From Candidatus Omnitrophota bacterium (GTDB taxonomy: Bacteria; Omnitrophota; Gorgyraeia; Pluralincolimonadales; Pluralincolimonadaceae): a stretch of 64,000 nucleotides of DNA. Positions 2,056 to 27,276 of the stretch are shown piece after piece. Position 1 is the first letter of the stretch, and each line of letters begins with the position of its first letter. A program made the translations under genes and the position numbers. The DNA lies in the NCBI GenBank assembly GCA_041653595.1, contig JBAZFB010000006.1:17503-81502 (forward strand). The letters run 5' to 3'. The notes under the pieces were generated by a model, which worked only from the letters and a program-made list of their open reading frames with translations, was not told where the DNA came from and searched no databases.

Positions 2056-2883
2056 ATGATAAATTGGATAATTTGGGTATTGGTCGCGGGGCTCTATTCG
2101 CCGGTCATCTCCCAGCTTTACAGGGCGCGATGGGAAAGCATAGACTACACCCACGCCTACTTCATCCTCCCTGTCTTCTTCGCCTTCCTCCTCTTCAAAA
2201 GAAAACAATTCGGGCAAGGTCCCTCCGCAGAGGGAGACACCTCAAATTATAGGACATCGATCATTGCGCTTTTTATTTTAATCGTCGGCCTGTTGATGTT
2301 CATATTCGGCTGGAAGTGGGATTACCTGATGATAACCACAGGCTCGATGATACCGGTGCTCTTCGGGCTGGTTTTGTACCTCTACGGCCCGTCTACGGCG
2401 AAAATAACGGCATTCCCGATATTATACCTGTTATTGCTCGTCCCGCCGCCGCTGGGCGTCCTCGATTCAATAACAATGCCCATGCGCTACGGAATCTCCA
2501 TCGCGACGGAGCACATTTTAAAGGCCTTCTGCATCCCGATAATCCGCGACGGGCTGATGCTCACCGTCGGCGGCCACGAGGTCTACATGGGCGCGCCGTG
2601 CAGCGGTTTCCGCTCGCTCATAACGATGTTCTCGCTCGCCCTTGCCTACGTCTATTTCATAAACGCGCGCCTGCGGAACAAAGTGATCCTCGTCATCTCG
2701 GTCGTCCCGCTCGCGCTTCTCGGTAACCTCATCCGCGTGACAGGGATGTGCCTCGTCACCTATAAATTCGGCGAAGAGACCGGGCACAAATTCCATGACA
2801 CGAGCGGCCTCGTGATATTCGTCGTGCTCATTCTCGGCCTGCTGGGGATAGAATCCCTGCTCGAAAAGAGGCCCAAAAAATGA
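2056..2883 (+). CDS. exosortase (EpsH/XrtA-family transpeptidase)
   Basis: 275 aa with 8 predicted TM helices. Conserved exosortase active-site motifs: Cys in GAPCSGFRS, Asn/Arg in LLGNLIRVTG. Followed by an EpsI gene and convergent with a PEP-CTERM protein gene. Confidence 0.8.
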   Translation: MINWIIWVLVAGLYSPVISQLYRARWESIDYTHAYFILPVFFAFLLFKRKQFGQGPSAEGDTSNYRTSIIALFILIVGLLMFIFGWKWDYLMITTGSMIPVLFGLVLYLYGPSTAKITAFPILYLLLLVPPPLGVLDSITMPMRYGISIATEHILKAFCIPIIRDGLMLTVGGHEVYMGAPCSGFRSLITMFSLALAYVYFINARLRNKVILVISVVPLALLGNLIRVTGMCLVTYKFGEETGHKFHDTSGLVIFVVLILGLLGIESLLEKRPKK

Positions 2884-3539
2884 AGAGCTCAAAAGCGATC
2901 ATTGTAATAACGCTGATCGGCCTGACGATGCTCGTAAGCTTCGCCCTGCCCAGGCCGAAATACGAGAGCCCGGATATCCTCTCAAAGCTCGAGATACCGG
3001 CAAGTTTCGGCGCCTGGCGCTCGCGCGACGCCTCATCGCAGGTCCAGACAGGCGGCGATGTCTATAATTTCGTGAGCCGCGTCTTCGCCCGCGAATACGC
3101 GCGGCCCGCATACATTTCCCTGCTCGATAAGGGCTACGAGGGACTGCTCTTCCTCATCCTGGGCGCCGGGAATTTCCATAACCCGAAAGTCTGCTACGGA
3201 AGTTCCGGCTACAAGACAACGGACCTGCCGGATATCGAATTCGACGCCAACGGCCATAGATTCAAGGCGTCGGCCGTCTTCTTCGACAGGCCGGGCAAAA
3301 GCGTCGTGATCACTTATTGGATAGTTATAGATAAGAAACAGGCGGGCTGGGGCCAGCAGAAGATCATCGAGCTCTGGTCGTCTTTATTAGGAAAGAAAAA
3401 GGCAGGTTTTATGTGCCGGATCGATATCCCGGCCACGGCCGATACGACAGACAAGGCCGTAAATCTCGCGAAAAGCTTCATCTCCGCTATCGCCCCGTTC
3501 ATCCCTCAGGACCAGGCGGAATATCTCTTCGGCAAATAA
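2880..3539 (+). CDS. exosortase-associated EpsI family protein
   Basis: 219 aa with an N-terminal TM anchor and a periplasmic domain. 4-nt overlap with the exosortase stop. Position and architecture are typical of EpsI in PEP-CTERM loci. Confidence 0.65.
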   Translation: MKSSKAIIVITLIGLTMLVSFALPRPKYESPDILSKLEIPASFGAWRSRDASSQVQTGGDVYNFVSRVFAREYARPAYISLLDKGYEGLLFLILGAGNFHNPKVCYGSSGYKTTDLPDIEFDANGHRFKASAVFFDRPGKSVVITYWIVIDKKQAGWGQQKIIELWSSLLGKKKAGFMCRIDIPATADTTDKAVNLAKSFISAIAPFIPQDQAEYLFGK

Positions 3540-3656: not shown

Positions 3657-4211
3657 TCATTTCCTTAATCCCTTTTTGCGTATACGTCTTATGAATAAAA
3701 TCGTTCCGCCTGTAACAAATAATATAGAAGCCACGGGTTCAGGTACCGCAATGGGATCACCGCCGCCCTGATTATGCCAATCTTGATCGCTACCTATAAA
3801 TTCCGGCCACGTCCACCAATCCTGTTCTGTATAAGTCAGGATCTGCCTTTGGACGACTTGCCCATTTAAGGATGCCTGATAAAGAAATTGGGTCGAGCGC
3901 GACGACACGTCATTATCAAAATTCAGATAGAACCTCAGCCAGTTTGAATCTGGGCCTACAGCATACGCCTCGGTATTTGAAACAGTGAAGTTTTGCCAGT
4001 TAGAATCGGTAAAATTGGTGAAGGTAGGGGTCGTAAATGTATCATCTGCCTGCCAGAAAATCTGCATCTGATCAAATGCGCCTACCGGAGCACTTTTATA
4101 GATTTCCGTGCTCGACTGCTGGAATAACTGGTTCCAGGTGTTGGCTGACGCAGCACCGGTAGCAAACATCGTCAAGATCGCAACAAACATTACCATAATA
4201 ATCTTTTTCAT
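3657..4211 (-). CDS. PEP-CTERM sorting-signal protein (exosortase substrate)
   Basis: N-terminal signal peptide (MKKIIMVMFVAILTMFATGAASA). C-terminus VPEPVASILFVTGGTILFIRRIRKKG is a PEP motif plus TM helix plus Arg/Lys-rich tail. Preceded by a 170-nt AT-rich upstream region. Confidence 0.8.
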   Translation of the reverse strand: MKKIIMVMFVAILTMFATGAASANTWNQLFQQSSTEIYKSAPVGAFDQMQIFWQADDTFTTPTFTNFTDSNWQNFTVSNTEAYAVGPDSNWLRFYLNFDNDVSSRSTQFLYQASLNGQVVQRQILTYTEQDWWTWPEFIGSDQDWHNQGGGDPIAVPEPVASILFVTGGTILFIRRIRKKGLRK

Positions 4212-4380
4212 TTTGCCACCTCACCTTATTTAAATAAGTTATTATTGTTCCTTATTAAGAATATGAAATAACACGGAATTATCCTCAGGAAGGTGTCATT
4301 CAAAGCAACGTGCTTATTTTAACAGATACTAAGATTTTGTCAATTGAAATAATTGCGATTTTTATAGCATTATTTTGCTG

Positions 4381-5493
4381 TTATCCGTTGGAGATTCCAA
4401 CCTCTCCTATCTCCTGATAAACCTTAAGCGTTTCTTCCGCTATCTTATCCCAATCGTATTTCTGTTTCAGCAATTCTATCTGGCGGGATTTCTCTTCTTC
4501 AGTCATCGGTTTTGCAATAAAGTCGTTCATCCTTAAGAATAAACCCTCGACATCACCTGCCATGAAATATCTCTCCTCGGAAAGGCCTACCTCCCTATTG
4601 GCCGGAATATCGCTGACTATGCAGGATAGTCTATAACTCATTGCCTCAAGGAGCGCTATAGGCAGGCCCTCATAATATGAAGGCAGTACAAACAGCCCAG
4701 CATGGCTGTAAAGCTCCTGCAGCGTTTTGCCTGTAATAAATCCGGTCAGGACGATATTCGGATTCTCGGCCGCCTTTCGCTTTAGGTCCAGGCTGTATTT
4801 ATCCTCATGGTCCGACTTCCCTGCAATGACAAGTTTCCATCCACCAGGGAATGTCCTCGCTATAAGGTCATGGAACCCCTTCTCCGGCACAAATCTGCCC
4901 ACTGCGAGAATATATTTGCCTACCCCAAGTCCATATTTATCCAGAGCCTCCCGCGTCTTCGCCGCTTCCGGAATTATGACTCCGTTGGGTATATCGCTTA
5001 TATCCCTCTTGAAATTCTTTCTTAATCTTTCGGCATTTGCTTTAGAAACAGAGATGACCCCATTCGCCCATGTGACCCCAAGATACTCTCCAATCATCAG
5101 TATATATTTTGGCAGTCCGGCCCATTTCTTCCTGAGATGTTCCGGGCCATGGCTCGTCATTACCGCCTTCATACCCAGCATCCTAACCATGGGTACGCAT
5201 AACGACGGCCCGCTAGCATGGATATGGACAATATCAGGTTTTAATCTTATTGCGGCTAGAACACCTTTAAACGTATGGACAAATGCCTCGAGAAATTTAT
5301 TACTCGGGCAGGTAAGGGGAATGAATTTAACGCCTTCGAATTCCTTTATGGAAGGATCAACATACTGTGCTCTCGTAAAAACAACTACTTCACAACCCCT
5401 CGCGGCCAGTCGCGGATAAAGATTCTCGCAGTGCGCTTCTACCCCGCCCTGCACACCGGGAAACCCACGCGTGCCCAAAACTGCGATTTTCAT
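4381..5493 (-). CDS. glycosyltransferase family 4 (DUF1972-type N-terminus)
   Basis: 370 aa. N-terminus MKIAVLGTRGFPGVQGGVE.HCE.L. C-terminal GT-B E-x7-E region YYEGLPIALLEAMSYRLSCIVSD. AT-rich cassette. Confidence 0.7.
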   Translation of the reverse strand: MKIAVLGTRGFPGVQGGVEAHCENLYPRLAARGCEVVVFTRAQYVDPSIKEFEGVKFIPLTCPSNKFLEAFVHTFKGVLAAIRLKPDIVHIHASGPSLCVPMVRMLGMKAVMTSHGPEHLRKKWAGLPKYILMIGEYLGVTWANGVISVSKANAERLRKNFKRDISDIPNGVIIPEAAKTREALDKYGLGVGKYILAVGRFVPEKGFHDLIARTFPGGWKLVIAGKSDHEDKYSLDLKRKAAENPNIVLTGFITGKTLQELYSHAGLFVLPSYYEGLPIALLEAMSYRLSCIVSDIPANREVGLSEERYFMAGDVEGLFLRMNDFIAKPMTEEEKSRQIELLKQKYDWDKIAEETLKVYQEIGEVGISNG

Positions 5494-6452
5494 CGTTTCA
5501 TTATCTTATTCTTTAAAACCCATAGCGCCGGAACAATTATGTTTTTTTTCATCGCCGGAGAGACCGAGCCTATCATCCAGCATTCTTTTTTGCACTCCCT
5601 AACGGCCTCGCGGACTTTCTCGGCTTGTCCGCCATTCCATATCTCGTTAAATGGTTTTTCCCTGATGTTACCCATGCTCATATCCACGCCGTTACACGGC
5701 ATAACATTACCGAAAGGATCTATGAAAAATAGATCCGTGCCAACCTCGCAGGGTAATAACCTTTTGTTGCCATGCGCGTAATTCAAAAGGCCATAATTAA
5801 AATACGCCCTGAACCAATTCTTCGGCCGACCACCCTTCAGTAAATTCGTAATCAACTTTTCCAATTCCCTGTCAAAATCGTCTAATCTGGTTATTTTATT
5901 ATCGAATTTATGGAAATAATACGTATTATGGACCGCGGCAGTCGCAAATTCCAGTCCCATCTCTTCGCTCAACTTATGGAGGTCCATAAGATCAAGTATG
6001 TTTCGGTCGGACAGGGTGATTCCAAAACCTATGTCTTTTAACCCCATTTTTCTGAGCTCTTTCAGGGTCCTTAGCCCATGCTCGAATCCGTCCTTTATTC
6101 CGCGAAGTTCGTCATTGGCCTTCTGAAGGCCTTCCATGCTTACCCTAATACCTATCTTCGGATATTGTCTCGCCAGATCCACTATCTTCTCAGTATAATA
6201 ACCGTTTGTGCTGATAACTATTCTTTTTGCCTTCTTACTCATCACCTCGACAAAACTCTTTATATCTTCCCTTATAAACGGCTCTCCGCCCGTTATATTA
6301 CAGAACCTCACACTTGGCAGAGACTCCAGATCCGAGGGCCTTATCTCTTCCTCGGGTCTCGTGGGATGCATCCATGTGTTACACATGTGGCACTTCGCAT
6401 TGCACCGATAAGTTATGGCTATGAGGGCTTCCTTAGGTTTATTTATCGCCAT
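5490..6452 (-). CDS. radical SAM enzyme with C-terminal SPASM/twitch-like Cys cluster
   Basis: CxxxCxxC motif CNAKCHMC near the N-terminus. C-terminal Cys-rich region (PCEVGTDLFFIDPFGNVMPCNG...CKKECWM). Start codon overlaps the upstream stop (ATGA), embedded between GT4 and GH genes. Confidence 0.75.
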   Translation of the reverse strand: MAINKPKEALIAITYRCNAKCHMCNTWMHPTRPEEEIRPSDLESLPSVRFCNITGGEPFIREDIKSFVEVMSKKAKRIVISTNGYYTEKIVDLARQYPKIGIRVSMEGLQKANDELRGIKDGFEHGLRTLKELRKMGLKDIGFGITLSDRNILDLMDLHKLSEEMGLEFATAAVHNTYYFHKFDNKITRLDDFDRELEKLITNLLKGGRPKNWFRAYFNYGLLNYAHGNKRLLPCEVGTDLFFIDPFGNVMPCNGVDMSMGNIREKPFNEIWNGGQAEKVREAVRECKKECWMIGSVSPAMKKNIIVPALWVLKNKIMKR

Positions 6453-7896
6453 CCGCGCCTCCGCCTCTTTCGATCTCTATCGCCGTAACCGATCTGGGCT
6501 CCAGCAGAATCTGAAATTTATTTGATTTTATTAAAAACTTTCTGCTTTTTATAACTACATCGTTATGCGGCGGCTTTTCGTTTGTTGAATCAATCGATTT
6601 CCCGGTTAAAACCCATTCACCGGCTTGAGACGATGGATTGAACCCGCGCAAATCTATAGTCAGCTTTTCTCTTTCGTTCAGATTCCTGTTTACCAGCATA
6701 ATATAAAGTTTGCTCCTGTCGTTTATTGTGCTTACGTTAACCGATACATATTTGTTTTTACTCAAAGAACATTGTACAAGCTCCTTGCCGAAATGCTTTG
6801 CGTACATTTCGAATACATAGTAGTTCGGTCTCTTAAAATAACTCTTACCAAGCTCGGACTCCCTACCGCTAAAACGGTTCGATACCATGCCCCAATATTC
6901 GTTTATGTAATTCCAATAATTTGCGCACAAAATATTATTCTCCGGTTTCATGAATATTCGCAGGAGCTCGGCATTTACAAGCGCGGTCCCCAGGCAGTGC
7001 CTGTAAGGTACCGGCTTTTGCTGAACAAACCATGCCGTAAATTCCGTGACGGCTATGGGCCTATCTTTCCCTGTGATGGACTTTATTATATTGTGCGTGT
7101 TCTTTATATCCTTCTCGATAGCCATGCCCTTGGTGAAAAGGTTTTCATATATTTTATTGGAATCCTGATTTGGGCTGTTATTTTTGCCGCCGTGAGGATA
7201 ATAATGCTTTACTATAAAATCAAACCTGTCACCGACCATCTTTACCACGCTCTCGTCCCAATCCTTCTCATAGCCGACTATTCCAAGCATGAGATTCGGA
7301 TTGATCGACTTAAACATATCATAATAATGCAGGTACCTATCAACATATTCTTGCGGTTTTAATATGAAGTAACTCTCGTTCCCTATCTCGATATATTTAA
7401 CTTCCGGATAATGCACTTTTAAATACTCCGCCAACCTTTTGTAACTATCTTCAAGCCACAGGTTTTGCAAGCATATAATAGGCTCTGCCCCTATTTCCCT
7501 GCAGAAACCTATCTGATCATCAAGCCCGAACTTATACTCCTTATTCGATAAACTCGGCACACCCTTTTCCCAATCCGTGAATTGTCCACTAAGCCTTATC
7601 ATGCGTATGTCTATGTTTTTTATAAGGGCAAGAGGCTCTTCGCAAAACTTTGTTCCATCCCTGATCCCGTAGCCATAGTCTGCTGCAATTCGATAGTTCG
7701 GGATCTTTTCACGGCCGTTATTCGCCTCCCACCCAAGAATGCTGGTGCCGTAAACCCTGGGGTTTACATTTTGGGTTTTGGCTGAGGCGTCTATGATAAG
7801 AGTTATCGTTTCAACCTTGTCGGCCGGCAGCACGCAAAAAACACATGCGCTCAATATGAATACCAATATTGTGAAAAATAATAGCGTCTTTCTCAC
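6439..7896 (-). CDS. secreted glycoside hydrolase, clan GH-A TIM-barrel (family uncertain)
   Basis: 485 aa with a signal peptide. The IEIGNE motif is consistent with the clan GH-A acid/base NE(P) strand. Embedded in the glycan cassette. Confidence 0.5.
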   Translation of the reverse strand: MRKTLLFFTILVFILSACVFCVLPADKVETITLIIDASAKTQNVNPRVYGTSILGWEANNGREKIPNYRIAADYGYGIRDGTKFCEEPLALIKNIDIRMIRLSGQFTDWEKGVPSLSNKEYKFGLDDQIGFCREIGAEPIICLQNLWLEDSYKRLAEYLKVHYPEVKYIEIGNESYFILKPQEYVDRYLHYYDMFKSINPNLMLGIVGYEKDWDESVVKMVGDRFDFIVKHYYPHGGKNNSPNQDSNKIYENLFTKGMAIEKDIKNTHNIIKSITGKDRPIAVTEFTAWFVQQKPVPYRHCLGTALVNAELLRIFMKPENNILCANYWNYINEYWGMVSNRFSGRESELGKSYFKRPNYYVFEMYAKHFGKELVQCSLSKNKYVSVNVSTINDRSKLYIMLVNRNLNEREKLTIDLRGFNPSSQAGEWVLTGKSIDSTNEKPPHNDVVIKSRKFLIKSNKFQILLEPRSVTAIEIERGGGADGDK

Positions 7897-7902
7897 GATC
7901 GA

Positions 7903-9114
7903 TTATACTCCGTATAGTTCTAGTATCTTTTTTTCCAGAATATCGGCGCCAAATCTCTCGTTAACCAGCTCCACCGCTCTAGCGCCTTTCCTCTCGCGCA
8001 TATCGCCGTCTTCTATAAGTATATTTAATCCGTGCGATATACCGTCAACCATGTGCGAGTAGCTGCCTATCGGCACCTTTATGCCAACTTCGTCATTCAC
8101 GCTGATATCGGGCCCGCCATAAGCGACGCAAACAACCGGCAGACCACTTGCCATAGCGTCCAGCACTACTGTTCCGCCGGGATCCTGAAGGGCCGGAAAC
8201 AGAAAAATATCGTAATCAACGAACATGGCCCTGTATTTTTCTAAAGGCACATGCCCAATAAACTTTATAACCCCCGAGAGGCCTTTTCTGTCGACGTATT
8301 CACGCAAACTTTTACTTAAAGGTCCGCTACCCGCTATATGAAACTCGTATCGCGCGCTAACTGCGTTACCCAGGGCTTCTACGGAATCGATGGCAAGCCA
8401 GACACCTTTATGCGCTGTGAGCCTGCCGGCGAATAAAATTTTAACCGTTCCGTCTTTATTTCCATTTGATCCTTTTGCCCGTTTTTTAATCCTAGTGTCA
8501 ACCATAGTATCGAAAATCTCGAGTATTTTACCTTCGCACCCGGATGGCAACAGTGGCCTCATATATTTTGTACCTATGATAATTTTTGACGCTTTCCTAA
8601 AATATTTCCGCCACCCAGGAATAACCGTTATAAACGATGCGATGAGGGACTTGCCCAGGTACAACAAGACTTGGCCCCTATAGGCGCGAATTGTGCGGAT
8701 ATCTAATTTCAGGCCGCCGCCCACCGGCCCCACATAGACCGGGACTTTGAACTTATATAGATCATTGAAGTAGTATATGCCTTCCGGAGTTAAACAATGT
8801 ATAACATCTATTCCGCCATCCTTTAATATGGCCGCTATTACTCTTCGACAATTTATTATAAATTCCCGATAAAGCATAAGATATCCAAGGCCTATCTTAT
8901 TCCAGGGCTCATACCGGTGCCTCTTTGTATCTACGTAAAAGAATTTTACGTTTCTTAAACTATCACATCTTTCAATATCTTCTTTATGATGATTGTCTAC
9001 TATTGCATATACTTCGCAATATCTTGAAAGCACCTCTACCCACGATGCGGCAACATGGCATTCGGAACCTATAAAGAAATTCAGGTCGTAAGCAACCACG
9101 ATCACTTTTTTCAT
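7903..9114 (-). CDS. glycosyltransferase family 4
   Basis: 403 aa. GT-B C-terminal motif QDPGGTVVLDAMASGLPVV. Confidence 0.7.
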   Translation of the reverse strand: MKKVIVVAYDLNFFIGSECHVAASWVEVLSRYCEVYAIVDNHHKEDIERCDSLRNVKFFYVDTKRHRYEPWNKIGLGYLMLYREFIINCRRVIAAILKDGGIDVIHCLTPEGIYYFNDLYKFKVPVYVGPVGGGLKLDIRTIRAYRGQVLLYLGKSLIASFITVIPGWRKYFRKASKIIIGTKYMRPLLPSGCEGKILEIFDTMVDTRIKKRAKGSNGNKDGTVKILFAGRLTAHKGVWLAIDSVEALGNAVSARYEFHIAGSGPLSKSLREYVDRKGLSGVIKFIGHVPLEKYRAMFVDYDIFLFPALQDPGGTVVLDAMASGLPVVCVAYGGPDISVNDEVGIKVPIGSYSHMVDGISHGLNILIEDGDMRERKGARAVELVNERFGADILEKKILELYGV

Positions 9115-10364
9115 TTAATACTTTCCCGAATTGCCTCATCGTATATCTGCATTAACGAAAGGTAGTGTTTATCTGCATTAAATTCCTGCTCGATAAACTT
9201 TCTCGCTTTTCTGCCCATGGCGGTAGCACTTGCGGCATTACTTGATAAATACTCTATTTTTTTACCGAGGTCTTCTGAATTGCCTGCTTCCGCCGTAAGT
9301 CCAGTTTCGCCATCCATTACCAACTCCGGAATCCCCCCTATGCGCGAAGCTATAACCGGCTTTCCGAGGGCAAAGCTCTCAAGCACGGATAAAGGATTAT
9401 TCTCATACCACTGCGATGGAAGTACCGTGCAGATCGATCTTTTTATTACGGAGTGAAGGTCGGCGCCTTTTAAATGCCCGAAAAACCTGATATTTTTTAT
9501 TCCGTCCAGAAACGCCTCCTTTTCAAGCGTTTCTTTTAACGGTCCATCTCCCACAATATTAACAACTATATTTGGAAGTTTCTTTATAGCCTTAAGTAGC
9601 GTTAGAACTCCTTTTTCTTCGGAGAGCCTTCCGAAGTAAGTAATTTCATTTTCCTTATGATCAAAATCAGGCTGGTATCCATTGGCCGAGATAAAATTCG
9701 GGAGATATACTATTTTACCGCGAAATCCCATTTCATTCATTTTTGTTTTTAGAAATCTGCTCGGGGAGATGAAAACATTTACATCGTCATAGATATGCAT
9801 TACCGTGTGATGAAGGTACATCTCCAGAGTATTGAGAAGGCTCTTAGAAAAAGATCCTTTCACGCATTTTTTTAATGCGCACTGATAGTATGCTCCATTT
9901 TTACAACTATCACAGATATTGTCCCGATTCAGCAGCCTGTACGATGCGCAGACAAGCTTATAGTCATGTAACGTCATGACTATCGGCACCCCGTGTTTTT
10001 TCAATACTCGGATTATGGAAGGCGATATCTGATGGTGTATGTTATGCAAATGCGCAATGTCAGGCTTTTCGGTCTTCAATAAACTGTTGATTTTAGAACT
10101 GGCTTCCCAGGAATAGAGAAGCTTCAGGCCATTAATGGCTTTGGCGCGCCATCCATTTTTGTTATAATCAACATTCGAGACGAAGTACTTACTATTATCC
10201 GATTCAAGATCAAAAGGGTGATGCATAGAGAAATCAAGCACCCTGTGCCCATTAGCCTTTAATAGCTCTCTGGTGGCAAAAAATACTTTTTCCGACCCGC
10301 CTTTTTCATAAAAATATTTATTAACTACCAGAATTTTCATTCGATTCTCGATTAGCGCCGCCAA
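9111..10364 (-). CDS. glycosyltransferase family 4
   Basis: 417 aa. MKILVVNKYFYEKGGSEKV N-terminus. C-terminal motif ENNPLSVLESFALGKPVIASRIGGIPE. The true start is probably the second Met (about 10340). Confidence 0.7.
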   Translation of the reverse strand: MAALIENRMKILVVNKYFYEKGGSEKVFFATRELLKANGHRVLDFSMHHPFDLESDNSKYFVSNVDYNKNGWRAKAINGLKLLYSWEASSKINSLLKTEKPDIAHLHNIHHQISPSIIRVLKKHGVPIVMTLHDYKLVCASYRLLNRDNICDSCKNGAYYQCALKKCVKGSFSKSLLNTLEMYLHHTVMHIYDDVNVFISPSRFLKTKMNEMGFRGKIVYLPNFISANGYQPDFDHKENEITYFGRLSEEKGVLTLLKAIKKLPNIVVNIVGDGPLKETLEKEAFLDGIKNIRFFGHLKGADLHSVIKRSICTVLPSQWYENNPLSVLESFALGKPVIASRIGGIPELVMDGETGLTAEAGNSEDLGKKIEYLSSNAASATAMGRKARKFIEQEFNADKHYLSLMQIYDEAIRESIK

Positions 10365-11823
10365 CCTTCAAATCGTGCTCTCCGCTGCCCTGTTTTACAA
10401 ATGACCATAGTATGCCGAGGCTTCCGAAATAGAAATACGTCCATAATGACGTTTCGTAAAATGTAGCTTTTAGGGACTCTATAAGACTTTCTGTAAACAC
10501 AAGAAACGCACCAAAAGCAAAAATACTGACAATTTGGCTTGTTTTGAGATGGAAACTCTCTCGAAGAATCTTAAAGAATCCAAATATTACCGAAATATAC
10601 AACAATATACCGAAAAAACCCGTTTCGGCCATAACGTGTGGCCAGAATGTATCATTTATAAAACTTGGAGAATCTGGCGTGAACCCCCATATATTGCTCA
10701 ATCCGTACTTGTAATAAAGAGGGCTGTAGTCTGCCCTGTTAATTCCGCTGCCAAAAGTTCCAAAACCGGATCCGAGCGGGAAATTATCAACGGCGATCTT
10801 AACTCCGGTCTTAAACAGGATGCTCCTAGGGGTCTCGCCTGCCGTAATATAATTTTTGTATAGATCCTTGTAAATCGTCATAACAAAACCGGAAAATAAC
10901 AACAATATGATAAGAAGTATTGCTATCGCATTTTTCTTTGCGATTTTTTTAGCGCTAACTTGAGCAGGCCATTTCGAAATAGCCATCAATGTAACCAAAA
11001 CAAATCCAAAAAGAGAGGTCCGGCGAAATGAGAATATAATGCCGACCATAAATACCGCTATGAGTATTGCGTATTTTCTTTTCCCCGTCACCAAAAATGC
11101 CGCCATACTATAACATCCGAGTATTGCCATAAAAGCGCCGAAAGCGCCGGGGTGACCAAACACAGATTGCATTGCAGCAAACCCGAAGCTTGTCGTATTG
11201 GGTAAATACCCCAGTTTTACTAAAAAAGCGTTGGGCCAGATAACAGCTAATACGCCATAAAGCATAACGATGAAACCAACAATCAGAAATCCTTTCATGT
11301 AGTATTTCAGGTGCTTCTCTTTGAAATCGGAATAAGCGAATATGTAGAACAAGAGGAAACCTTTAACAAACAATACGGCGCCGCCTATTGTCGTTTGAAA
11401 CGACACTATCCTATTGGTAATACTGCTCGCGAATCCTAAAAGAATAAGCGCAATAACTGGCATATCAATAGGGGAACCGAAAAATTTTTCTTTCCTTGCG
11501 AGTCTCCTTATAACCATAAGTGTGAACAAAACTATTATGGCAGCTTCGTCCAGATTCTGTATTATCTTAAGGCGAAATACATGCAGCATATACGACTGCA
11601 TAACCAGGAAAAAGCCAAAAAGGAAAATAGCGACCTGCGGCGTGCATAGCGCTAGAACTAGGCCGAATAAGCACAGAAAAAAGAAGGCGGCAATAAACAC
11701 GTCTACGGAAATAATAAACGACAATAGTAGCGTAACAATAATAAGAGCCGTAGCTACTATTAGAAGGAATGGACCGTTATTGAGTTTTTCTCTATCAGGC
11801 ATGGGACACGAAATGGTTATCAA
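10321..11823 (-). CDS. O-antigen ligase/Wzy-like polymerase family membrane protein (PEP-CTERM locus type)
   Basis: 500 aa with about 10-12 TM helices and a large periplasmic loop. Position between GT genes and the flippase. Confidence 0.6.
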   Translation of the reverse strand: MITISCPMPDREKLNNGPFLLIVATALIIVTLLLSFIISVDVFIAAFFFLCLFGLVLALCTPQVAIFLFGFFLVMQSYMLHVFRLKIIQNLDEAAIIVLFTLMVIRRLARKEKFFGSPIDMPVIALILLGFASSITNRIVSFQTTIGGAVLFVKGFLLFYIFAYSDFKEKHLKYYMKGFLIVGFIVMLYGVLAVIWPNAFLVKLGYLPNTTSFGFAAMQSVFGHPGAFGAFMAILGCYSMAAFLVTGKRKYAILIAVFMVGIIFSFRRTSLFGFVLVTLMAISKWPAQVSAKKIAKKNAIAILLIILLLFSGFVMTIYKDLYKNYITAGETPRSILFKTGVKIAVDNFPLGSGFGTFGSGINRADYSPLYYKYGLSNIWGFTPDSPSFINDTFWPHVMAETGFFGILLYISVIFGFFKILRESFHLKTSQIVSIFAFGAFLVFTESLIESLKATFYETSLWTYFYFGSLGILWSFVKQGSGEHDLKVGGANRESNENSGS

Positions 11824-13051
11824 CCTTATTTTTTATATAAATCATTGACACCGCCGAATTCAATATGAAAGTTATGGTTATCGAAATCGCGGCGCCCCAT
11901 ATTCCGTACGAGGGAACCAGCATAAAAAGAAGTATCAGGGCAATCACAAACTTCGACGCCTCTAGCATAAATCTTTGCTTCATCATGCCCAGCGCAAAGA
12001 ATAATGCTGAAAACGGCATATAAACTATCGAAAATAGGTATCCTAAAAGCAATATCCTCATGATCGATCCAGCCGATTCGTAGTCAGGCCCATAAAGCAC
12101 CCTTATAATACTATGCGCGAATATAATTAAAATAACAACAAGAATATTGATTGCGCTGCTTATTATAAATGATTCCTTTATGAATCTAGCATAGGTGGCC
12201 CTTGATTCAAGCGCCTTGCAGCCTTTGGGTAAAAATACGTTCGAAAGCGAACCCGTCATTACCGATATAACCAAAATAAACTGCTGAGCCGAAAAATATA
12301 TACCTACGGATTCAAACTTTACATATCTAGGCAGGAAGAAAAGATCCAGTCGTGTAAAAAGATATCCCAGTGTCATCGTTCCAAATATCCACTTGCCAAA
12401 AGCAAATGACGAATTTAATATTTTTGTATCCAGAGGTAGAAGGTTCCGGATCTTGCGTTTAAATATAAGATAAATGCTTACAGTTCCTATCGCAAGAGAA
12501 ACCGAGGCGTACATTGCTATCGCCATGTTAAACGATGGGCGCATGCCGAATACAACGCTGAGTATTAACATTAAAAATATCGTTACTGTATAAAATGAAT
12601 AGAAAAACGAAAACATCGTAAAGTGCTCTCTCTCCTGGTAGATACTGGCTATGGTCATCAAAAATGACTGAAAAACACCGGATATAACGGCAAGCGTTAT
12701 GACCCATTCGATGCCCGGCTTCTGGAAACAGTATTTTGCCAGAAGAATAGATAGCGGATATGAAATGACTATCGCGATGACCGAATAAATTATCTTCATT
12801 ATCACGGCCATCTTAAAATATTCCCGTTTTTCGTCATCGCTTTCGGCAATAGCAGCGTTGCGAATGAACGTTGCGTCAAATGCCTGAGGGAACAGCCACG
12901 TTAGCACCATAACCGTAAAGAATATTGAAAACTTTCCAAAATCGGCCGGGCCCAGGATGCGGGCAACTATTATCGAATTTAAAAACGATACGCCCCTGGA
13001 GAAACCGGTACCGAAAAGTACTGTAATGTAATCTTTTATTGTCTTTTTCAT
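11795..13051 (-). CDS. Wzx-type oligosaccharide flippase (MOP superfamily)
   Basis: 418 aa with about 12 TM helices. N-terminus ITVLFGTGFSRGVSFLNSIIVARILGPADFGKFS is typical of the polysaccharide biosynthesis protein family. Confidence 0.7.
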   Translation of the reverse strand: MKKTIKDYITVLFGTGFSRGVSFLNSIIVARILGPADFGKFSIFFTVMVLTWLFPQAFDATFIRNAAIAESDDEKREYFKMAVIMKIIYSVIAIVISYPLSILLAKYCFQKPGIEWVITLAVISGVFQSFLMTIASIYQEREHFTMFSFFYSFYTVTIFLMLILSVVFGMRPSFNMAIAMYASVSLAIGTVSIYLIFKRKIRNLLPLDTKILNSSFAFGKWIFGTMTLGYLFTRLDLFFLPRYVKFESVGIYFSAQQFILVISVMTGSLSNVFLPKGCKALESRATYARFIKESFIISSAINILVVILIIFAHSIIRVLYGPDYESAGSIMRILLLGYLFSIVYMPFSALFFALGMMKQRFMLEASKFVIALILLFMLVPSYGIWGAAISITITFILNSAVSMIYIKNKVDNHFVSHA

Positions 13052-13061
13052 AGTGTTATGA

Positions 13062-14051
13062 TCATTTTACTGCAATTGCATCCTTTGGATATTTATCAAT
13101 AGCAGGTATTTTTCTAAAAACGCCGCCTATAAGACATAGCGATATGACGCTTATATTTATAAGACTTAGCACGGCTTGATGAACGCTCCCCTTCTTTATG
13201 CTTATACCTATGAATAAAAGACAGGCTAAAACCGTAAAAACAATGCGGGAATTTCCGCTGTTAATGAAAATACCTGTCGTTATACATACCGCCAGTATTG
13301 TGTAGACAATATACGGCATAAACCTGTCCCAAATAACCCCGAATTCTCCGTTATATAAAACCCAGGAAAACGTATCACCCATACCTTGCCATAAATTGTT
13401 TCTAATACGACGAGTCGTTTCTTTAAATGTTTTTCTTGGAATAGAATAATGATATATGGAATCGTACGGAAGATAATATAACTTGTATCCCAGCTTTTTT
13501 AGGCGCCACGACAATTCCGCCTCTTCCTCTGCCCTTAAGAACGGGTGGAATCCTCCGGCTTCCACAAGATATTTTCTGCGAAAAACAGCGGACTGAAATA
13601 CATAACTTACCTGCCTTTCATATTTAAGCCCTTTGCCATCTCTGGAAACGTGCGGCTCGGAACGCTCACCATCGGCTGTTACATAGATGTCATATTGCTT
13701 ACCCATTACTGCCGCAACATCATTATTAGCTTCAAGAAAACCTATGGCCTCCTCTGCCCATCCATTTACCAGCTCCATATCCCCATCCATAAATAACAGG
13801 TATTCTCCGCAAGCATAATTTGTTCCTGTAAAACGCGCCGCAGAAGGGGACAATTTCCACGAAGGCCTCATTCCAATAATCCTGATCGGGTAACTCTTCG
13901 CAATATCTACTGTATCGTCACTTGAGTATGAGTCTATAAGAATTATTTCGGATTTATCAATATTTTTTATCGTTTGCATAACGGATCCGATACAGCGGCC
14001 TATGTTCTTTCCCTCGTTCCTGGCTATTATTATGCAGCTTAGCTGCGACAC
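13062..14051 (-). CDS. glycosyltransferase family 2 with C-terminal TM helices
   Basis: CIIIARNEGKNIGRCIGSV...LIDSYSSDDT...FMDGDMEL: a GT-A fold with DxD. Confidence 0.75.
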   Translation of the reverse strand: MSQLSCIIIARNEGKNIGRCIGSVMQTIKNIDKSEIILIDSYSSDDTVDIAKSYPIRIIGMRPSWKLSPSAARFTGTNYACGEYLLFMDGDMELVNGWAEEAIGFLEANNDVAAVMGKQYDIYVTADGERSEPHVSRDGKGLKYERQVSYVFQSAVFRRKYLVEAGGFHPFLRAEEEAELSWRLKKLGYKLYYLPYDSIYHYSIPRKTFKETTRRIRNNLWQGMGDTFSWVLYNGEFGVIWDRFMPYIVYTILAVCITTGIFINSGNSRIVFTVLACLLFIGISIKKGSVHQAVLSLINISVISLCLIGGVFRKIPAIDKYPKDAIAVK

Positions 14052-15472
14052 TTTCCCGCCCCTTCCGATTTGCGATTATTTTTTACCGTGATTCCGTGGC
14101 GCGAGATGTCTATGTTGGTAATTTTGCATATCAACTTACGTATATATCTGCGGATAAACATGGAAACGCTTATCACGGCGTAAGTTAGGCTAAGGAACGG
14201 ATCCTCCCATGATAGTACGGCCTCTACTGCCTCTCTTGTTGCCAGAGACCTGATCTGGGTAAAAAAAGGCAAATGATATATGGATTTTTTATCCAGGCTG
14301 TACGCTGCCAGATATTCTAACTCGCCCTTTATATAAAACCATTTTGTTTTTAACTTATTAGCCTTATACTCTCCAATACTGAGTCCGGAATATTCCTGAT
14401 ATTGCATGGCTACAAAATTCATGCCACGAAAAGCCGCAAGTGACATCCAGTGATTGGAGCGCGGATTAAGCTCAAGGAATTTATAGGCGCCGTCCCTTGC
14501 GTCGTATTTAAACTCCGTCTCTCCTATGCCTTTATAGCCTATCGCGCTGACATATGATTTGGTGTACGACTCTATTTCGGGACAATCAATCTTTTCTCCG
14601 AAGGTACATATGCCAAAATCTGCCGGAAATTGCCTGATCTTCTTCGAGGAGAATAAGCGCATGCTGCCCGATTTATCCGAATAGAACTTACACTCAAATA
14701 AAGTTTCACATAGTCCCGGTATCTCTTCCTGGATTATTACCTCAAGCCCTCTACTTAGAACATCTTTAGCCCTGCAAATCAACTCTTCCTGATCGTGGCA
14801 TACAAGCGCCTTGACATATTCATATACATGCATAAACTCATGAATCTTGCTGATCTTTCCACCTTCCATATTAAACCTGGCAATAGGTTTAATTATAACC
14901 GGGAACCGCAGCTTACCCTCCCACGAATCAATATCCGCGATATCCTTCAGAGATAAAGTGCGCGGGACAGGAATCCCGAGGTCCCTAGCTTTCAGATACA
15001 TTTGCCATTTGTCAAATCCCCAGAATAAAGCATCTTTTTCCAGATATGGATACTGATAATATTCCTCAAGCACTTTCTTATTGCTCGATATAAGAAAAAC
15101 GGAAATGTCATCGCATGGAAATAATACGGCTTTTTTAACTTTTTTACCGAGATCAACCAAAAATGATACGAAATGTTCGGGTTCCCTGGCCGGGTCGGGA
15201 CAGCGGCGAGCTTGAAACAGCCGCGATGACGACATGAAACTGTGTCGATGGTTCAGTCCAATTATGGGAACGCTTCTATCCGCCATATAAATACTGCGTA
15301 CCGCGCCGTAACCACATACTGTTTCATATGGATATACTAAAGCCGGGACATTATTTACTTGTTTTTGCAACTCTCTCTCCCGAATGATCGTAGAACCAGA
15401 ACCATAATATCCTAATATTATTGACGTAGCCGCGGTCCTGCGCGCCAAGTTTCTTCGCCATGCTTTTGGCAA
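14039..15472 (-). CDS. ATP-grasp domain protein (carboxylate-amine ligase type)
   Basis: FPVIIKPIARFNMEGG, EEIPG and GIGETEFKYDARDGAYKFLELNPR match ATP-grasp signatures. The annotated start overlaps the upstream gene by 120 nt, so an alternative start near 15286 (MADRS) is possible. Confidence 0.6.
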   Translation of the reverse strand: MPKAWRRNLARRTAATSIILGYYGSGSTIIRERELQKQVNNVPALVYPYETVCGYGAVRSIYMADRSVPIIGLNHRHSFMSSSRLFQARRCPDPAREPEHFVSFLVDLGKKVKKAVLFPCDDISVFLISSNKKVLEEYYQYPYLEKDALFWGFDKWQMYLKARDLGIPVPRTLSLKDIADIDSWEGKLRFPVIIKPIARFNMEGGKISKIHEFMHVYEYVKALVCHDQEELICRAKDVLSRGLEVIIQEEIPGLCETLFECKFYSDKSGSMRLFSSKKIRQFPADFGICTFGEKIDCPEIESYTKSYVSAIGYKGIGETEFKYDARDGAYKFLELNPRSNHWMSLAAFRGMNFVAMQYQEYSGLSIGEYKANKLKTKWFYIKGELEYLAAYSLDKKSIYHLPFFTQIRSLATREAVEAVLSWEDPFLSLTYAVISVSMFIRRYIRKLICKITNIDISRHGITVKNNRKSEGAGKCRS

Positions 15473-16019
15473 ATCTGTTATCGGTCTTAACGTACCATCT
15501 CACTCCCTTATACCCCCTATCGCACAGAACAGCAAAGCCCGATAGGTAGGAATTCATTGTTATACTTCTCTTCACGATAAAGTCCCTGTCTATAAGCAGG
15601 CCATAAAGATACGGGACTTCATTAAGCATATCGCCTCGGGCGATTTTTGGATAGATGTGATCTCTGGAATTATCACTGCACCATGAAATAGCCACCAATT
15701 TACCTGATAAGAGCATGGCAAAACATAGCTGTTTCTCTTTAAATCTTATTTTCACGTCGTCAATAAGCAGCCTGTCCCAGAAAGCCTCTGTCCTTATGAG
15801 CTCAACTAATTCATCATAGCTTCCTATAATCACGAATTTCTGATCTGCTGGAAGGATAACTTGCGATACGGGAGATTTAAAATCCTTGAAGTAATAAGTG
15901 GACTTGCTGAAAGAAACCGGAGGAAAAAGAAACCAGAAGAACGCCTTGATATTTTTAGTGACCGCGGCAATCAGTGGATATCTCTTCCTTAGGCTGTTAT
16001 TTATTTGAAAGCTTATCAT
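15351..16019 (-). CDS. putative acyltransferase (GNAT/FemAB-like fold)
   Basis: 222 aa. A weak GNAT-like motif around RFAKSMAKKLGA. First gene after a stem-loop and an A/T-rich upstream region. Confidence 0.35.
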   Translation of the reverse strand: MISFQINNSLRKRYPLIAAVTKNIKAFFWFLFPPVSFSKSTYYFKDFKSPVSQVILPADQKFVIIGSYDELVELIRTEAFWDRLLIDDVKIRFKEKQLCFAMLLSGKLVAISWCSDNSRDHIYPKIARGDMLNEVPYLYGLLIDRDFIVKRSITMNSYLSGFAVLCDRGYKGVRWYVKTDNRFAKSMAKKLGAQDRGYVNNIRILWFWFYDHSGERVAKTSK

Positions 16020-17731: not shown

Positions 17732-18447
17732 TAGAATACCCCCTCTTCGACCTGCACGATGTCGCCGGGTTCGAGGACGACGTCGTTAGCGAGGCCGTTC
17801 ATTATGAGTTTCATGTTGACCTTTATCATATCGTAACCCGCGCCTTTGACTTTAGGACGAAGGACCTTTACGCGGCTTGAGGAGCCGTATCTGGTGAAGC
17901 CGCCGGCGCTTGAGATCGCCTTGAGGACCGTCATATTATCCTCGAGCAGGTATGTGCCGGGCTTTAAGACCTCGCCATAGACATAAAATTTTTTGCTTTG
18001 GGATTGCTTGAGCGCTACCGAAACGACCGGGTATTTCAGGTAGCCGTCGGCGAGGCGACTCTGTATCTCATCCTGGATTTCAGCCGGCGTCTTGCCTTTT
18101 ACCTCCACCCTGCCGATATACGGGAACGTTATCGAGCCGTCCGGCGATACCGTTACCGTAAGCGCCATCTGCTCCGGCTGGAGGACGTTTATATCGAGGA
18201 TGTCGTCAACGCCGACTTTGTATTCTTTGGGGCGTGCGGGCTGAGGCGTTACTGCCTCAGCGATGGGGGCAGAGTTAACAAGAGATGGACCTGTCCCCTC
18301 CTGTGCAACGGGGATAGTCCCGGCGCGTGGAGTCGCCGCCTGCGGGATGGCTGCCTTCGGCTGGGCGAAATCTGACCGTTTTATCGTTTCGTCAGCGAAT
18401 GCCACGCTTGCGATAAACAAAAACACGAGTATTGCGTACCTCATCAC
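17731..18447 (-). CDS. polysaccharide export periplasmic protein (Wza/EpsE family, short form)
   Basis: Signal peptide. Poly_export motif PGDIL.I.V....L plus an SLBB-like region. ATGA overlap with the downstream gene. Confidence 0.8.
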   Translation of the reverse strand: MMRYAILVFLFIASVAFADETIKRSDFAQPKAAIPQAATPRAGTIPVAQEGTGPSLVNSAPIAEAVTPQPARPKEYKVGVDDILDINVLQPEQMALTVTVSPDGSITFPYIGRVEVKGKTPAEIQDEIQSRLADGYLKYPVVSVALKQSQSKKFYVYGEVLKPGTYLLEDNMTVLKAISSAGGFTRYGSSSRVKVLRPKVKGAGYDMIKVNMKLIMNGLANDVVLEPGDIVQVEEGVF

Positions 18448-26426: not shown

Positions 26427-26430
26427 AGTG

Positions 26431-26670
26431 TCAGAATTTGCCCTTTAGTTTGGAAAGTACTTTTGTCGCCTCGTTAAGGAAACGGTTGAACTCTTCGGCC
26501 TGTATAAGCCCGATCATGCCGTCCGGCTTGGCGAAGACGACAAGCTTATCGCCGGACTTTATCTTGAACGTCTTCCTTATGTCCGCGGGAACCACCACTT
26601 GTCCCCTCTCACCTACAGTCACCACGCTGTGGAACCCGCCGCCCGGGCCGCCCTTGAATTCAGTTTTCAT
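26431..26670 (-). CDS. AbrB/MazE/SpoVT-family swapped-hairpin DNA-binding protein
   Basis: GERGQVVVPADIRKTFKIKSGDKLVV is a swapped-hairpin motif. Perfect SD GGAGG 8 nt upstream. Leads the efflux operon. Confidence 0.65.
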   Translation of the reverse strand: MKTEFKGGPGGGFHSVVTVGERGQVVVPADIRKTFKIKSGDKLVVFAKPDGMIGLIQAEEFNRFLNEATKVLSKLKGKF

Positions 26671-26689
26671 CTTAACCTCCGTAATGTGT

Positions 26690-26745
26690 TATTGTATGAA
26701 TTGTATGATTTGTATGATATATCATACATACGGAGATGTCAATAT
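26690..26745 (-). promoter_or_regulatory. promoter plus operator of the AbrB-like/efflux operon
   Basis: On the minus strand: TTGACA (26742..26737), 17 nt, TATCAT (26719..26714). Three tandem TTGTATGA units (26692, 26701, 26710; period 9) overlap a perfect 16-bp palindrome GTATGATATATCATAC (26712..26727). Confidence 0.55.
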
Positions 26746-26799
26746 ATTTATTTATGTTTATTACTATAGTTAGACGCGCCTCCACCCAAAAGGTTTACA

Positions 26800-26842: not shown

Positions 26843-26854
26843 GGATATACTTAA

Positions 26855-27157: not shown

Positions 27158-27184
27158 GGTACACGCCCTCCTATTTTTCGTTTT

Positions 27185-27250: not shown

Positions 27251-27276
27251 CCTGCCAAAAACGGCAGGGACTGCGG

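Follow-up and report, generated by a model that had tools for sequence, protein, structure and literature searches.

An oxygen-sensitive radical S-adenosylmethionine (SAM) enzyme of an Omnitrophota bacterium, which we call the rSAM, is the core of a recurrent module in polysaccharide loci of the Wzx/Wzy type, where it stands with two glycosyltransferases of family GT4 in the order GT4c-rSAM-GT4a. Its gene lies in a stretch of 64,000 nucleotides (nt) from Candidatus Omnitrophota bacterium (contig JBAZFB010000006.1 of assembly GCA_041653595.1). 'The window' below means this whole stretch; positions are counted along its full length, and the genes of the polysaccharide region are on its minus strand. 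An initial annotation had noticed the rSAM gene between a GT4 gene and a glycoside hydrolase gene. It missed the module, which in the window is split by a third GT4 gene (GT4b) and by the hydrolase gene, whereas the canonical order elsewhere is without GT4b. As to function, we put the chance at about one in two that the module is a horizontally mobile set of three enzymes for building glycans and that the rSAM at its core tailors a sugar of the diphosphate-linked repeat unit. The features of the module and of the hydrolase in the window are the following.

5490-6452, minus strand: rSAM, radical SAM/truncated-SPASM (twitch-like) enzyme of 320 amino acids (aa), core of the module, assigned by PF04055 and PF13186
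6381-6404, minus strand: CNAKCHMC codons (C17, C21, C24), predicted ligands of the radical SAM [4Fe-4S] cluster, from the translation; invariant in 64 homologues
5580-5750, minus strand: codons of the predicted auxiliary-cluster region, C235-X12-G-X4-C253 ... C287-X3-C291, with four Cys only
5490-5493, minus strand: ATGA, where the stop of the rSAM gene overlaps the start of GT4a downstream of it, read from the sequence
4381-5493, minus strand: GT4a, GT4 glycosyltransferase of the DUF1972 or WchF-Cps2T-like kind, 370 aa, steadiest partner of the rSAM, by Pfam GT4 domains
6439-7896, minus strand: GH51-like glycoside hydrolase of 485 aa, predicted from PF06964 to be a retaining enzyme of clan GH-A and probably exported
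7822-7896, minus strand: signal-like hydrophobic segment at the N-terminus of the hydrolase, MRKTLLFFTILVFILSACVFCVLPA, from the translation
7903-9114, minus strand: GT4b, extra GT4 glycosyltransferase, 403 aa, by Pfam
9111-10364, minus strand: GT4c, GT4 glycosyltransferase with a conserved four-Cys insertion, 417 aa, second partner in the module, by neighbourhood

Glycosyltransferase partners, natural fusions and spread of the rSAM

The neighbourhood set comprised the window and 83 related loci from species-representative genomes, with open reading frames (ORFs) called and clustered. Of the 77 loci with room for one, 49 have by tblastn a full-length GT4a homologue that starts no more than 400 nt past the end of the rSAM, and because it recurs at this frequency the adjacency of rSAM and GT4 is far from chance. 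Loci that have no GT4a directly downstream mostly encode it elsewhere on the same strand. By ORF clustering, 61 of 75 loci have GT4a (~370 aa, DUF1972 type), 8 more of the Lachnospiraceae type have it in a form fused to WecG, and 55 of 75 have GT4c (~408 aa), which is directly upstream of the rSAM in 30. No third gene family was present in more than 13 of the clustered rSAM loci, nor was any nucleotide-sugar pathway gene enriched there. The loci examined carry Wzx, Wzy, polysaccharide co-polymerases (PCPs) and priming transferases, and the neighbourhoods were polysaccharide loci in every case inspected.

When compared with the PDB sequences, GT4a and GT4c gave generic GT4 matches only. GT4a aligns end to end with the Cps2T model NF046071, at 50.4 bits against a cut-off of 500, and is not an equivalog of this rhamnosyltransferase; PF09314 (DUF1972) is found in its homologues but not, at E <= 0.01, in the GT4a of the window. 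GT4a has no conserved Cys. The N-terminal domain of GT4c bears a Cys-rich insertion, VCASYRLLNRDNICDSCKNGAYYQCALKKC (residues 139-167), in which C139, C151, C154 and C167 each reach 95% conservation or more across 55 homologues and whose motif is also seen in the fusion protein P0313. Such an insertion is, to our knowledge, unusual for a GT4 enzyme and could be a zinc or iron-sulfur site. In the eight Lachnospiraceae loci mentioned above, L059 and L052 among them, GT4a appears to be fused N-terminally to a WecG/TagA-like domain (~640-660 aa, recognised by eye), which would fit an enzyme working at reducing-end steps on the lipid carrier.

The rSAM and its partners are also found as single proteins. 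A Desulfovibrio metagenome-assembled genome (MAG; locus L013) encodes GT4c and rSAM in one ORF of 814 aa, and a Zixibacteria MAG (L014) encodes rSAM and GT4a in one ORF of 734 aa. We used the Zixibacteria fusion as a query against the protein collection and classified the best 120 clusters: 54 were GT4c::rSAM, 10 rSAM::GT4a and 7 GT4a::rSAM, and in 32 the rSAM was extended at its C-terminus by more than 200 aa, in many cases with FNR-type FAD/NAD-binding Pfam domains. The remaining 17 had the rSAM alone, short or N-terminal extensions, or no rSAM domain. One GT4c::rSAM cluster represents 1,075 sequences and another is named from Coprococcus sp. OM04-5BH; P0241 is an rSAM::GT4a fusion. Around the GT4c::rSAM protein P0313, named for Coprococcus sp., the genes run priming transferase, GT4a, acyltransferase, GT4c::rSAM, acyltransferase and GT2, followed further on by a pyruvyl transferase and Wzx. 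The extension of P0270 is by Pfam an FNR-type FAD/NAD-binding reductase module, and from fusions of this type it would seem that NAD(P)H provides the rSAM with electrons. The FNR fusions form a large subgroup (P0263-P0303, for example P0270 and P0272; loci L169, L172 and L173) outside the GT4 triad.

Two other kinds of fusion were seen: P0360 (696 aa) joins the rSAM to a LicD-family transferase, and P0317 (801 aa) joins it to a second, BioB/ThiH-like radical SAM domain and a BATS domain. A further candidate, a 603-aa 'fusion' in locus L022, was discarded as an artefact of choosing the longest ORF in high-GC DNA.

The family is large. A MAG of Candidatus Omnitrophota encodes a 'radical SAM protein' with 100% identity to the rSAM of the window, and a word-indexed protein search found 7,512 matches to this rSAM among 8,000 candidates scored. 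All of the best 120 protein matches are 60-100% identical to it, with Omnitrophota, Actinobacteria, Caloramator, Pseudodesulfovibrio, Ruminiclostridium, Sumerlaeota and Woesearchaeota among their named sources. At least 583 species-representative genomes carry the family, from many bacterial phyla and from Methanosarcinales; judged by name, the carriers are apparently nearly all anaerobic lineages. When 1.84 billion cluster representatives were searched exhaustively with phmmer, 270 of them matched at E <= 1e-30. The initial annotation had called the role of such an enzyme in an exosortase locus undescribed, and we agree in so far as no NCBIfam model claims the family and no paper on it or on its coupling to GT4 enzymes was found in the open-access literature (term-matched full text; subscription journals could differ).

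A search of plasmid records returned only two rSAM records, both labelled 'radical SAM protein' in RefSeq, from Segatella copri DSM 18205 (Bacteroidota; L084 11974-13185) and from plasmid pNP95 of Pseudobutyrivibrio xylanivorans (Bacillota; L085 11974-13146). The two copies are 82% identical, and such identity across phyla suggests recent horizontal transfer. Both have a C-terminal extension of ~80 aa and the loop HNSFYFVEAKN in place of HNxYYFHKFDN, and are possibly a subfamily with a different specificity. The rSAM is also present on two IMG/VR contigs classed as viral (L174 and L175), on the first of which a GT4a homologue lies 1.1 kb downstream.

Domains of the rSAM and of the GH51-like hydrolase

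The rSAM ORF (5490-6452) starts with ATG, and CNAKCHMC, which the initial annotation had pointed out, is found at residues 17-24. Pfam Radical_SAM (PF04055) matches with 59.0 bits (cut-off 29.5), which places the protein in the radical SAM superfamily, and Pfam SPASM (PF13186) with 44.8 bits (cut-off 21.5). The SPASM profile TIGR04085, a search that the initial annotation had proposed, just passed its cut-off of 27 when set against the last 96 aa (27.6 bits), with profile positions 1-65 of 93 covered only. A full SPASM domain has a seven-Cys motif, CX9-15GX4C - gap - CX2CX5CX3C - gap - C, for two auxiliary clusters. Across 64 homologues of the rSAM there are just seven invariant Cys in the whole protein, the three of the radical SAM motif and four C-terminal ones, C235-X12-G248-X4-C253 and C287-X3-C291. 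The SPASM domain is thus matched in part, and the CX9-15GX4C pattern is followed by further Cys as in twitch domains. Because there are only four C-terminal Cys, instead of the seven of a full SPASM domain, we assign the domain as a truncated SPASM of the twitch type, predicted to hold the ligands for one auxiliary cluster. The SPASM/twitch-like Cys cluster of the initial annotation is therefore present on alignment, in this shortened form.

An AlphaFold2 model of the rSAM (pLDDT 93.3) puts the family in the SPASM/twitch group by predicted fold, which by itself does not decide the substrate. Besides the Cys, many Arg and Lys and an aromatic loop, HNxYYFHKFDN, are invariant in the homologues (n=64); these basic residues and the loop may bind a diphosphate and a sugar. 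The best NCBIfam match is the PTO1314 family (TIGR03961), which aligns end to end with 78.4 bits against a cut-off of 306, so that the rSAM is not a member. We also considered the C-terminal helix as an amphipathic membrane anchor and rejected this for its low hydrophobic moment (0.22).

The hydrolase ORF (6439-7896) starts with GTG, has IEIGNE at residues 169-174 and overlaps with its stop the start of the rSAM gene by 14 nt (6439-6452). The initial annotation had read it as a signal-peptide glycoside hydrolase of clan GH-A, and this stands. Pfam Alpha-L-AF_C (PF06964) matches with 55.7 bits (cut-off 27), and PF22848 is precomputed for P0121, a protein identical to the hydrolase of the window. 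At E <= 1e-6, a HMMER search of PDB sequences returned GH51 arabinofuranosidases only, with two cellulase chains at E 0.15. In the HMMER alignment E174 (of IEIGNE) and E285 (of AVTEF) fall on the catalytic Glu positions of 3S2C and 3UG3, which we take to be the acid/base and the nucleophile, respectively, of the Thermotoga GH51 enzyme; both are invariant in 60 homologues. In a Foldseek search with the AlphaFold model (pLDDT 90.6) the top 43 hits were all GH51 (TM-score 0.71-0.76), followed by a GH44-like enzyme and GH79 enzymes. The Pfam, HMMER and Foldseek matches and the two Glu assign the hydrolase to clan GH-A as a GH51-like enzyme. As to the -1 subsite that holds arabinofuranose in GH51 enzymes, the equivalents of H231-x-Y233 and R101 are conserved; by sequence the N-terminal region does not align to GH51, the alignment starting at residue 120. 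Its identity to solved GH51 enzymes is ~15-21%, so that their substrate specificity is not transferable to it. A basic and hydrophobic N-terminal segment is present in 20 of 20 aligned homologues. In the window the residues LSAC (15-18; 7843-7854, minus strand) fit a lipobox, a motif that is not conserved in the homologues, and the hydrolase may be a lipoprotein.

The hydrolase and the rSAM are paired beyond the window. Three hydrolase homologues, chosen for their long contigs, all have a GT4c-like gene next to them in a polysaccharide locus; behind two of them come the rSAM and a DUF1972 GT4, and the third contig ends at the hydrolase gene. We also scanned the alignment of the hydrolase family against metagenome contigs, which gave 80 loci, to which three looked-up loci were added. 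The rSAM follows downstream on the same strand in 27 of the 64 hydrolase loci with at least 1.1 kb of downstream sequence, mostly within 250 nt. These 27 are nearly all closer relatives of the hydrolase of the window, typically in the order GT4c-GH-rSAM-GT4a (GH, the hydrolase gene), which is also found in two genome loci, L005 (Omnitrophota) and L027 (Planctomycetia); distant forms are mostly without the module. The pairing is therefore a real and repeated association, optional from the side of the rSAM, and the hydrolase is accessory and not core. In one contig (L101, 4191-4286) the hydrolase gene is followed by a 32-aa remnant of the rSAM only, with ~1.9 kb of sequence beyond, which may be a decayed module. 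By analogy with hydrolases in other exopolysaccharide operons, the enzyme most likely trims or releases the exported polymer. Since it is nearly dedicated to the module, it is suggested to recognise a residue or linkage that the module makes.

The polysaccharide locus of the window

The other genes of the locus and of the nearby exosortase system are the following.

2056-2883, plus strand: exosortase EpsH (TIGR02602, 130.6 bits against a cut-off of 105.6)
2880-3539, plus strand: EpsI (TIGR02914, 55.7 bits against a cut-off of 42.8)
3657-4211, minus strand: PEP-CTERM protein, 184 aa (VPEP, transmembrane segment and basic tail)
10321-11823, minus strand: polytopic membrane protein of 500 aa, candidate Wzy-type polymerase by its hydrophobic sequence
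11795-13051, minus strand: Wzx-type flippase of the MOP family (PF01943, 84 bits; PF13440, 74 bits)
13062-14051, minus strand: GT2 glycosyltransferase (PF00535, 82 bits)
16151-17731, minus strand: PCP/tyrosine kinase (TIGR01007, 111.6 bits against a cut-off of 108)
17731-18447, minus strand: Wza-like exporter (TIGR03027, 117.9 bits, under the cut-off of 180)
18444-19805, minus strand: priming polyprenyl glycosylphosphotransferase (TIGR03025, 420 bits against a cut-off of 295.6)

In the direction of transcription the locus runs from the priming transferase through the Wza-like exporter, the PCP kinase, two unassigned ORFs with an ATP-grasp gene, the GT2 and Wzx to the 500-aa polytopic protein, GT4c, GT4b, the hydrolase, the rSAM, GT4a and the PEP-CTERM protein. 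The 500-aa protein has no Pfam or NCBIfam match, and homologues of it were found in 9 of the 83 rSAM loci. The block 3657-16019 has a G+C content of 40-47%, against 50-55% in the flanking machinery genes, and holds the PEP-CTERM gene, all glycosyltransferases, the rSAM, the hydrolase, Wzx, the Wzy-like protein and the ATP-grasp gene. A low-GC block between flanks of higher GC is the usual signature of the exchangeable, structure-specifying centre of a polysaccharide locus.

Within 14039-16019 (minus strand) the ATP-grasp protein, 477 aa when read from a TTG, overlaps an ORF of 222 aa (15351-16019) that has no family match; the ATP-grasp gene probably begins at a start codon further downstream. 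Such an enzyme in the cassette hints at amidation of a uronic acid with an amino acid. A second low-GC stretch lies at ~30000-34000 and includes an ORF of 1111 aa (31156-34491, minus strand). Unrelated neighbours at 20978-28944 (minus strand) are a major facilitator superfamily transporter, a MacB-MacA-TolC-type efflux set (22173-26426) and a hydroxylamine reductase/hybrid-cluster protein (27277-28944, minus strand, 815 bits), the last of which is consistent with an anaerobic host.

The PEP-CTERM protein ends in ...VPEPVASILFVTGGTILFIRRIRKKGLRK, with the tail VPEP...RRIRKKGLRK, and no other such tail was found in the window. An exosortase/PEP-CTERM system is thus present in the window, with no specific link to the rSAM.

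Proposed function, alternative explanations and comparison with known systems

In the mechanism that we propose, the priming transferase and the GT4 enzymes would build the repeat unit on undecaprenyl diphosphate at the cytoplasmic membrane face. The rSAM would cleave SAM reductively at its CX3CX2C cluster, and the resulting 5'-deoxyadenosyl radical would take a ring hydrogen from one sugar of the diphosphate-linked intermediate. The substrate radical would then become a tailored residue, for which an epimer, a keto or deoxy sugar and a ring-rearranged sugar are candidates, with the single, fully Cys-ligated auxiliary [4Fe-4S] cluster as electron conduit. The partner GT4 would extend the modified residue, and the unit would be flipped by Wzx, polymerised and exported. 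Outside the cytoplasm the GH51-like enzyme, exported by means of its signal peptide, would hydrolyse or trim the polymer. What is observed are the domains, the four-Cys auxiliary site, the conservation of the module, the fusions and the pairing with the hydrolase. From these we infer that the substrate is more probably lipid-linked than nucleotide-linked, what the auxiliary cluster and the hydrolase do, and in which order the steps follow.

Since the triad is conserved and the rSAM is found fused to transferases of three kinds, it seems that the enzyme works together with glycosyltransferases on a growing glycan. A lipid-linked substrate is favoured for two reasons. A sequence of glycosyl transfer, tailoring and again glycosyl transfer would explain why both GT4s are conserved, and the fusion partners differ in donor and share the acceptor: donors are NDP-sugars (nucleoside diphosphate sugars) for GT4 enzymes and CDP-alcohols for LicD. 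The full Cys ligation of the predicted auxiliary cluster suggests a role in electron transfer, and the FNR fusions would fit epimerisation, reductive deoxygenation or rearrangement at least as well as a dehydrogenation of the BtrN type. Several observations weigh against the tailoring of a diphosphate-linked sugar. GT4c is absent from about a quarter of the loci, and GT4a from a few. Only about 4 of the 83 rSAM loci have a homologue of the hydrolase, and the substrate of the hydrolase is not readable from its sequence. Apart from BlsE, which comes first, the structural neighbours of the rSAM are the peptide- or protein-modifying SkfB, SuiB, CteB and anSME. The FNR-fused rSAMs occur in looser, still glycan-related contexts without the two GT4s: one, on a Kiritimatiellae contig, has a PIG-L deacetylase of 557 aa and a DMT_6 small membrane protein, another adjoins GT9, MBOAT and AlgX-like genes, and another lies near a glycosyltransferase and a Wza-like exporter. 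Finally, the rSAM is far more conserved across the loci than its partners (mean pairwise identity 56%, against 42% for GT4a and 36% for GT4c).

This last point favours the main rival explanation, which is possible and to which we give a clearly smaller chance, namely that the rSAM converts a common NDP-sugar such as UDP-Glc, UDP-GlcNAc or GDP-Man to a rare one for use by GT4a. The reaction would be an epimerisation, deoxygenation, decarboxylation or rearrangement, and GT4c would make or need the matching acceptor. Sugar-synthesis genes are usually more conserved than transferase genes in O-antigen and capsule loci, as the rSAM is here, and a common precursor would fit the finding that no other nucleotide-sugar gene is enriched. 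The many invariant basic residues, the resemblance to BlsE and the existence of FNR-fused relatives without the GT4 pair also speak for it, and FNR-like fusions recall the supply of electrons by E1/E3 in the synthesis of CDP-3,6-dideoxyhexoses. On the other hand, proteins fused to GT4c, to GT4a in both orders and to LicD are unlikely to use one donor, and the two conserved GT4s around the rSAM would be left unexplained. One particular reaction was considered and rejected as a general rule: a UDP-glucose dehydrogenase gene near the rSAM in the first two loci had raised a BlsE-like decarboxylation of a uronic acid, but no such enrichment was seen in the 83 loci. A narrower form of the tailoring of a lipid-linked sugar is a radical ring rearrangement or contraction, in which a hexopyranose placed by a GT4 on polyprenyl diphosphate would become a five-membered-ring residue (furanose-like or carbocyclic), in analogy to calditol synthase (Cds) and HpnJ on lipid head groups, and the GH51-like enzyme would be the matching hydrolase. 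The GH51 fold is otherwise devoted to furanosides; we regard the idea as doubtful.

Substrates other than sugars have less in their favour. The rSAM could mature a neighbouring protein in the manner of anSME, QhpD or SkfB, with the four-Cys insertion of GT4c or the hydrolase as possible targets. Its resemblance to SkfB (E 2.4e-15), SuiB, CteB and anSME, the tight linkage and fusion of the genes and the four Cys that GT4c keeps even in the fused P0313 would agree with this. Yet GT4c is missing from about a quarter of the loci and the hydrolase from ~95%, GT4a has no conserved Cys to offer, FNR-fused members have no GT4 neighbour at all, and the Cys4 motif would be more simply a structural zinc site. 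The rSAM does not belong to the anSME type, which is marked by a full SPASM domain with two auxiliary clusters and by a sulfatase substrate gene, no RRE domain was found in it, and we consider a protein maturase quite improbable.

The initial annotation had offered the PEP-CTERM protein or a sugar residue as substrate, and comparative genomics favours the sugar. The PEP-CTERM gene is indeed near (its start is 1279 bp downstream of the rSAM stop, and not 1.1 kb as first given), exosortase and EpsI genes are in the window, and many SPASM enzymes are maturases of peptides, so that a modification of this protein, or of another ribosomal peptide, before sorting by the exosortase was a natural thought. 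The protein has no Cys, however, which excludes thioether or Cys-to-formylglycine chemistry on it. None of the 83 rSAM loci holds a homologue of it, exosortase-like ORFs occur in few of them, and the variable block of low GC has the PEP-CTERM gene at its border. The rSAM family is also found in organisms named as Firmicutes and Archaea. Maturases of RiPPs (peptides made on the ribosome and then modified post-translationally) are recognised by an RRE/PqqD domain and an adjacent precursor gene; Pfam finds two domains only in the rSAM, whose CX3CX2C motif begins at residue 17, and the genes between 4381 and 10364 overlap or abut and leave no room for a precursor peptide. Because of the missing Cys, the absence of homologues from the loci, and the lack of a leader-binding domain and of room for a precursor, a peptide or PEP-CTERM substrate is very unlikely, and we judge the closeness to the PEP-CTERM/exosortase genes to be incidental. 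The idea of a misplaced housekeeping maturase for a cofactor, of the AhbD/NirJ, MoaA, PqqE or MftC type, which the initial annotation had named as the outcome that would speak against it, is effectively refuted. Automatic names from some sources, such as 'Fe-coproporphyrin III synthase' and 'MoaA/NifB/PqqE/SkfB family', point that way, as would a 'putative mycofactocin maturase MftC' of Lactococcus in the gene table of one paper, should it belong to the family, but the curated NCBIfam models give the rSAM 50-78 bits against cut-offs of 265-650 (AhbD 77.5/500, NirJ 66.8/515, MoaA 51.1/284, PqqE 50.1/381, MftC 60.6/265), and polysaccharide neighbourhoods and fusions to glycosyltransferases do not go with such a role.

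Radical SAM enzymes are known to tailor sugars in antibiotic pathways and in the head groups of a few lipids; we know of no case from the Wzx/Wzy assembly of capsules, O-antigens or exopolysaccharides. The kind of enzyme is a known one, a twitch-type carbohydrate radical SAM enzyme, and what appears to be new is its integration and fusion with the glycosyltransferases of surface polysaccharides. The family is large, highly conserved, exchanged between phyla and present in prominent gut organisms. If the rSAM installs a new sugar residue, many surface glycans of anaerobes hold structure that composition analyses and gene-based predictions have missed, with a bearing on phage receptors, immune recognition and glycan-degrading enzymes. 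If ring contraction were true, five-membered-ring residues might be expected in capsules and exopolysaccharides across Bacteria and Archaea, apparently for the most part in anaerobes. Common genera of the human gut would be among them, such as Segatella and Coprococcus, as would organisms that bear the names Lachnospiraceae and Bacteroidales. Direct experimental handles are offered by the natural fusions of GT4 and rSAM and by the dedicated hydrolase. For annotation, such rSAM/SPASM genes should not be called RiPP maturases or cofactor synthases. The rSAM is a good lead for new glycan enzymology that is not specific to exosortase loci.

How does the module compare with known systems? BlsE, the cytosylglucuronate decarboxylase of blasticidin S synthesis (PDB 7VOB), is 17% identical to the rSAM, with a HMMER match to the N-terminal core only. 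It belongs to a Streptomyces antibiotic pathway, with no surface-polysaccharide locus and no glycosyltransferase partner, and no uronic-acid gene is enriched near the rSAM family. The aminoglycoside dehydrogenases and epimerase BtrN, SpeY and HygY have, as is predicted for the rSAM, a single auxiliary [4Fe-4S] site after the core. They bind it by CX(n)GX4C and a second Cys pair and act on carbohydrates; BtrN uses four Cys ligands, and its twitch region aligns to residues 219-282 of the rSAM. SkfB is the best PDB sequence match (6EFN, E 2.4e-15, over the full length), and the overall fold is common with SuiB, CteB and anSME. In contrast to these, the rSAM has four auxiliary Cys, no RRE or other leader-binding domain and no precursor gene, and its conserved partners are glycosyltransferases and not peptides, proteases or transporters as with peptide SPASM enzymes.

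According to a 2026 review (PMC13459092), calditol synthase (Cds) and HpnJ are radical SAM enzymes that rearrange a hexose in place after a glycosyltransferase has attached it to a lipid. The rSAM would follow the same pathway logic, a likeness drawn from the descriptions, and the lipids differ: a glycerol dialkyl glycerol tetraether for Cds and a hopanoid for HpnJ, against what would be a polyprenyl diphosphate for the rSAM. The FNR-fused relative beside a PIG-L-type deacetylase also recalls the HpnI/K/J pathway, whose order is glycosyltransferase, deacetylase and radical SAM enzyme.

Among the accompanying enzymes, GT4a homologues resemble WchF, Cps2T and GacB in having DUF1972 and GT4 domains, although the GT4a of the window is not an equivalog. 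WchF, Cps2T and GacB catalyse the second step, on a lipid-linked first sugar. In the Coprococcus-type locus GT4a stands directly after the priming transferase, and GT4a fits as a second-step enzyme of this kind. The hydrolase shares with the GH51 alpha-L-arabinofuranosidases (Thermotoga maritima, 3UG3) the TIM barrel with a C-terminal beta-sandwich and both catalytic Glu, but the enzyme of the window lacks four residues of the RFPGGCG motif of its family, and it is predicted to be exported and is encoded in polysaccharide biosynthesis loci beside the rSAM, whereas GH51 enzymes are found in loci for the utilisation of plant cell walls. PslG (GH39) and BcsZ (GH8) are periplasmic or secreted enzymes that cleave the polymer of their own operon, and PslG belongs to clan GH-A and has a beta-sandwich. 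Like them, the GH51-like hydrolase is encoded in the biosynthetic operon of a polymer, in its case from a different CAZy family.

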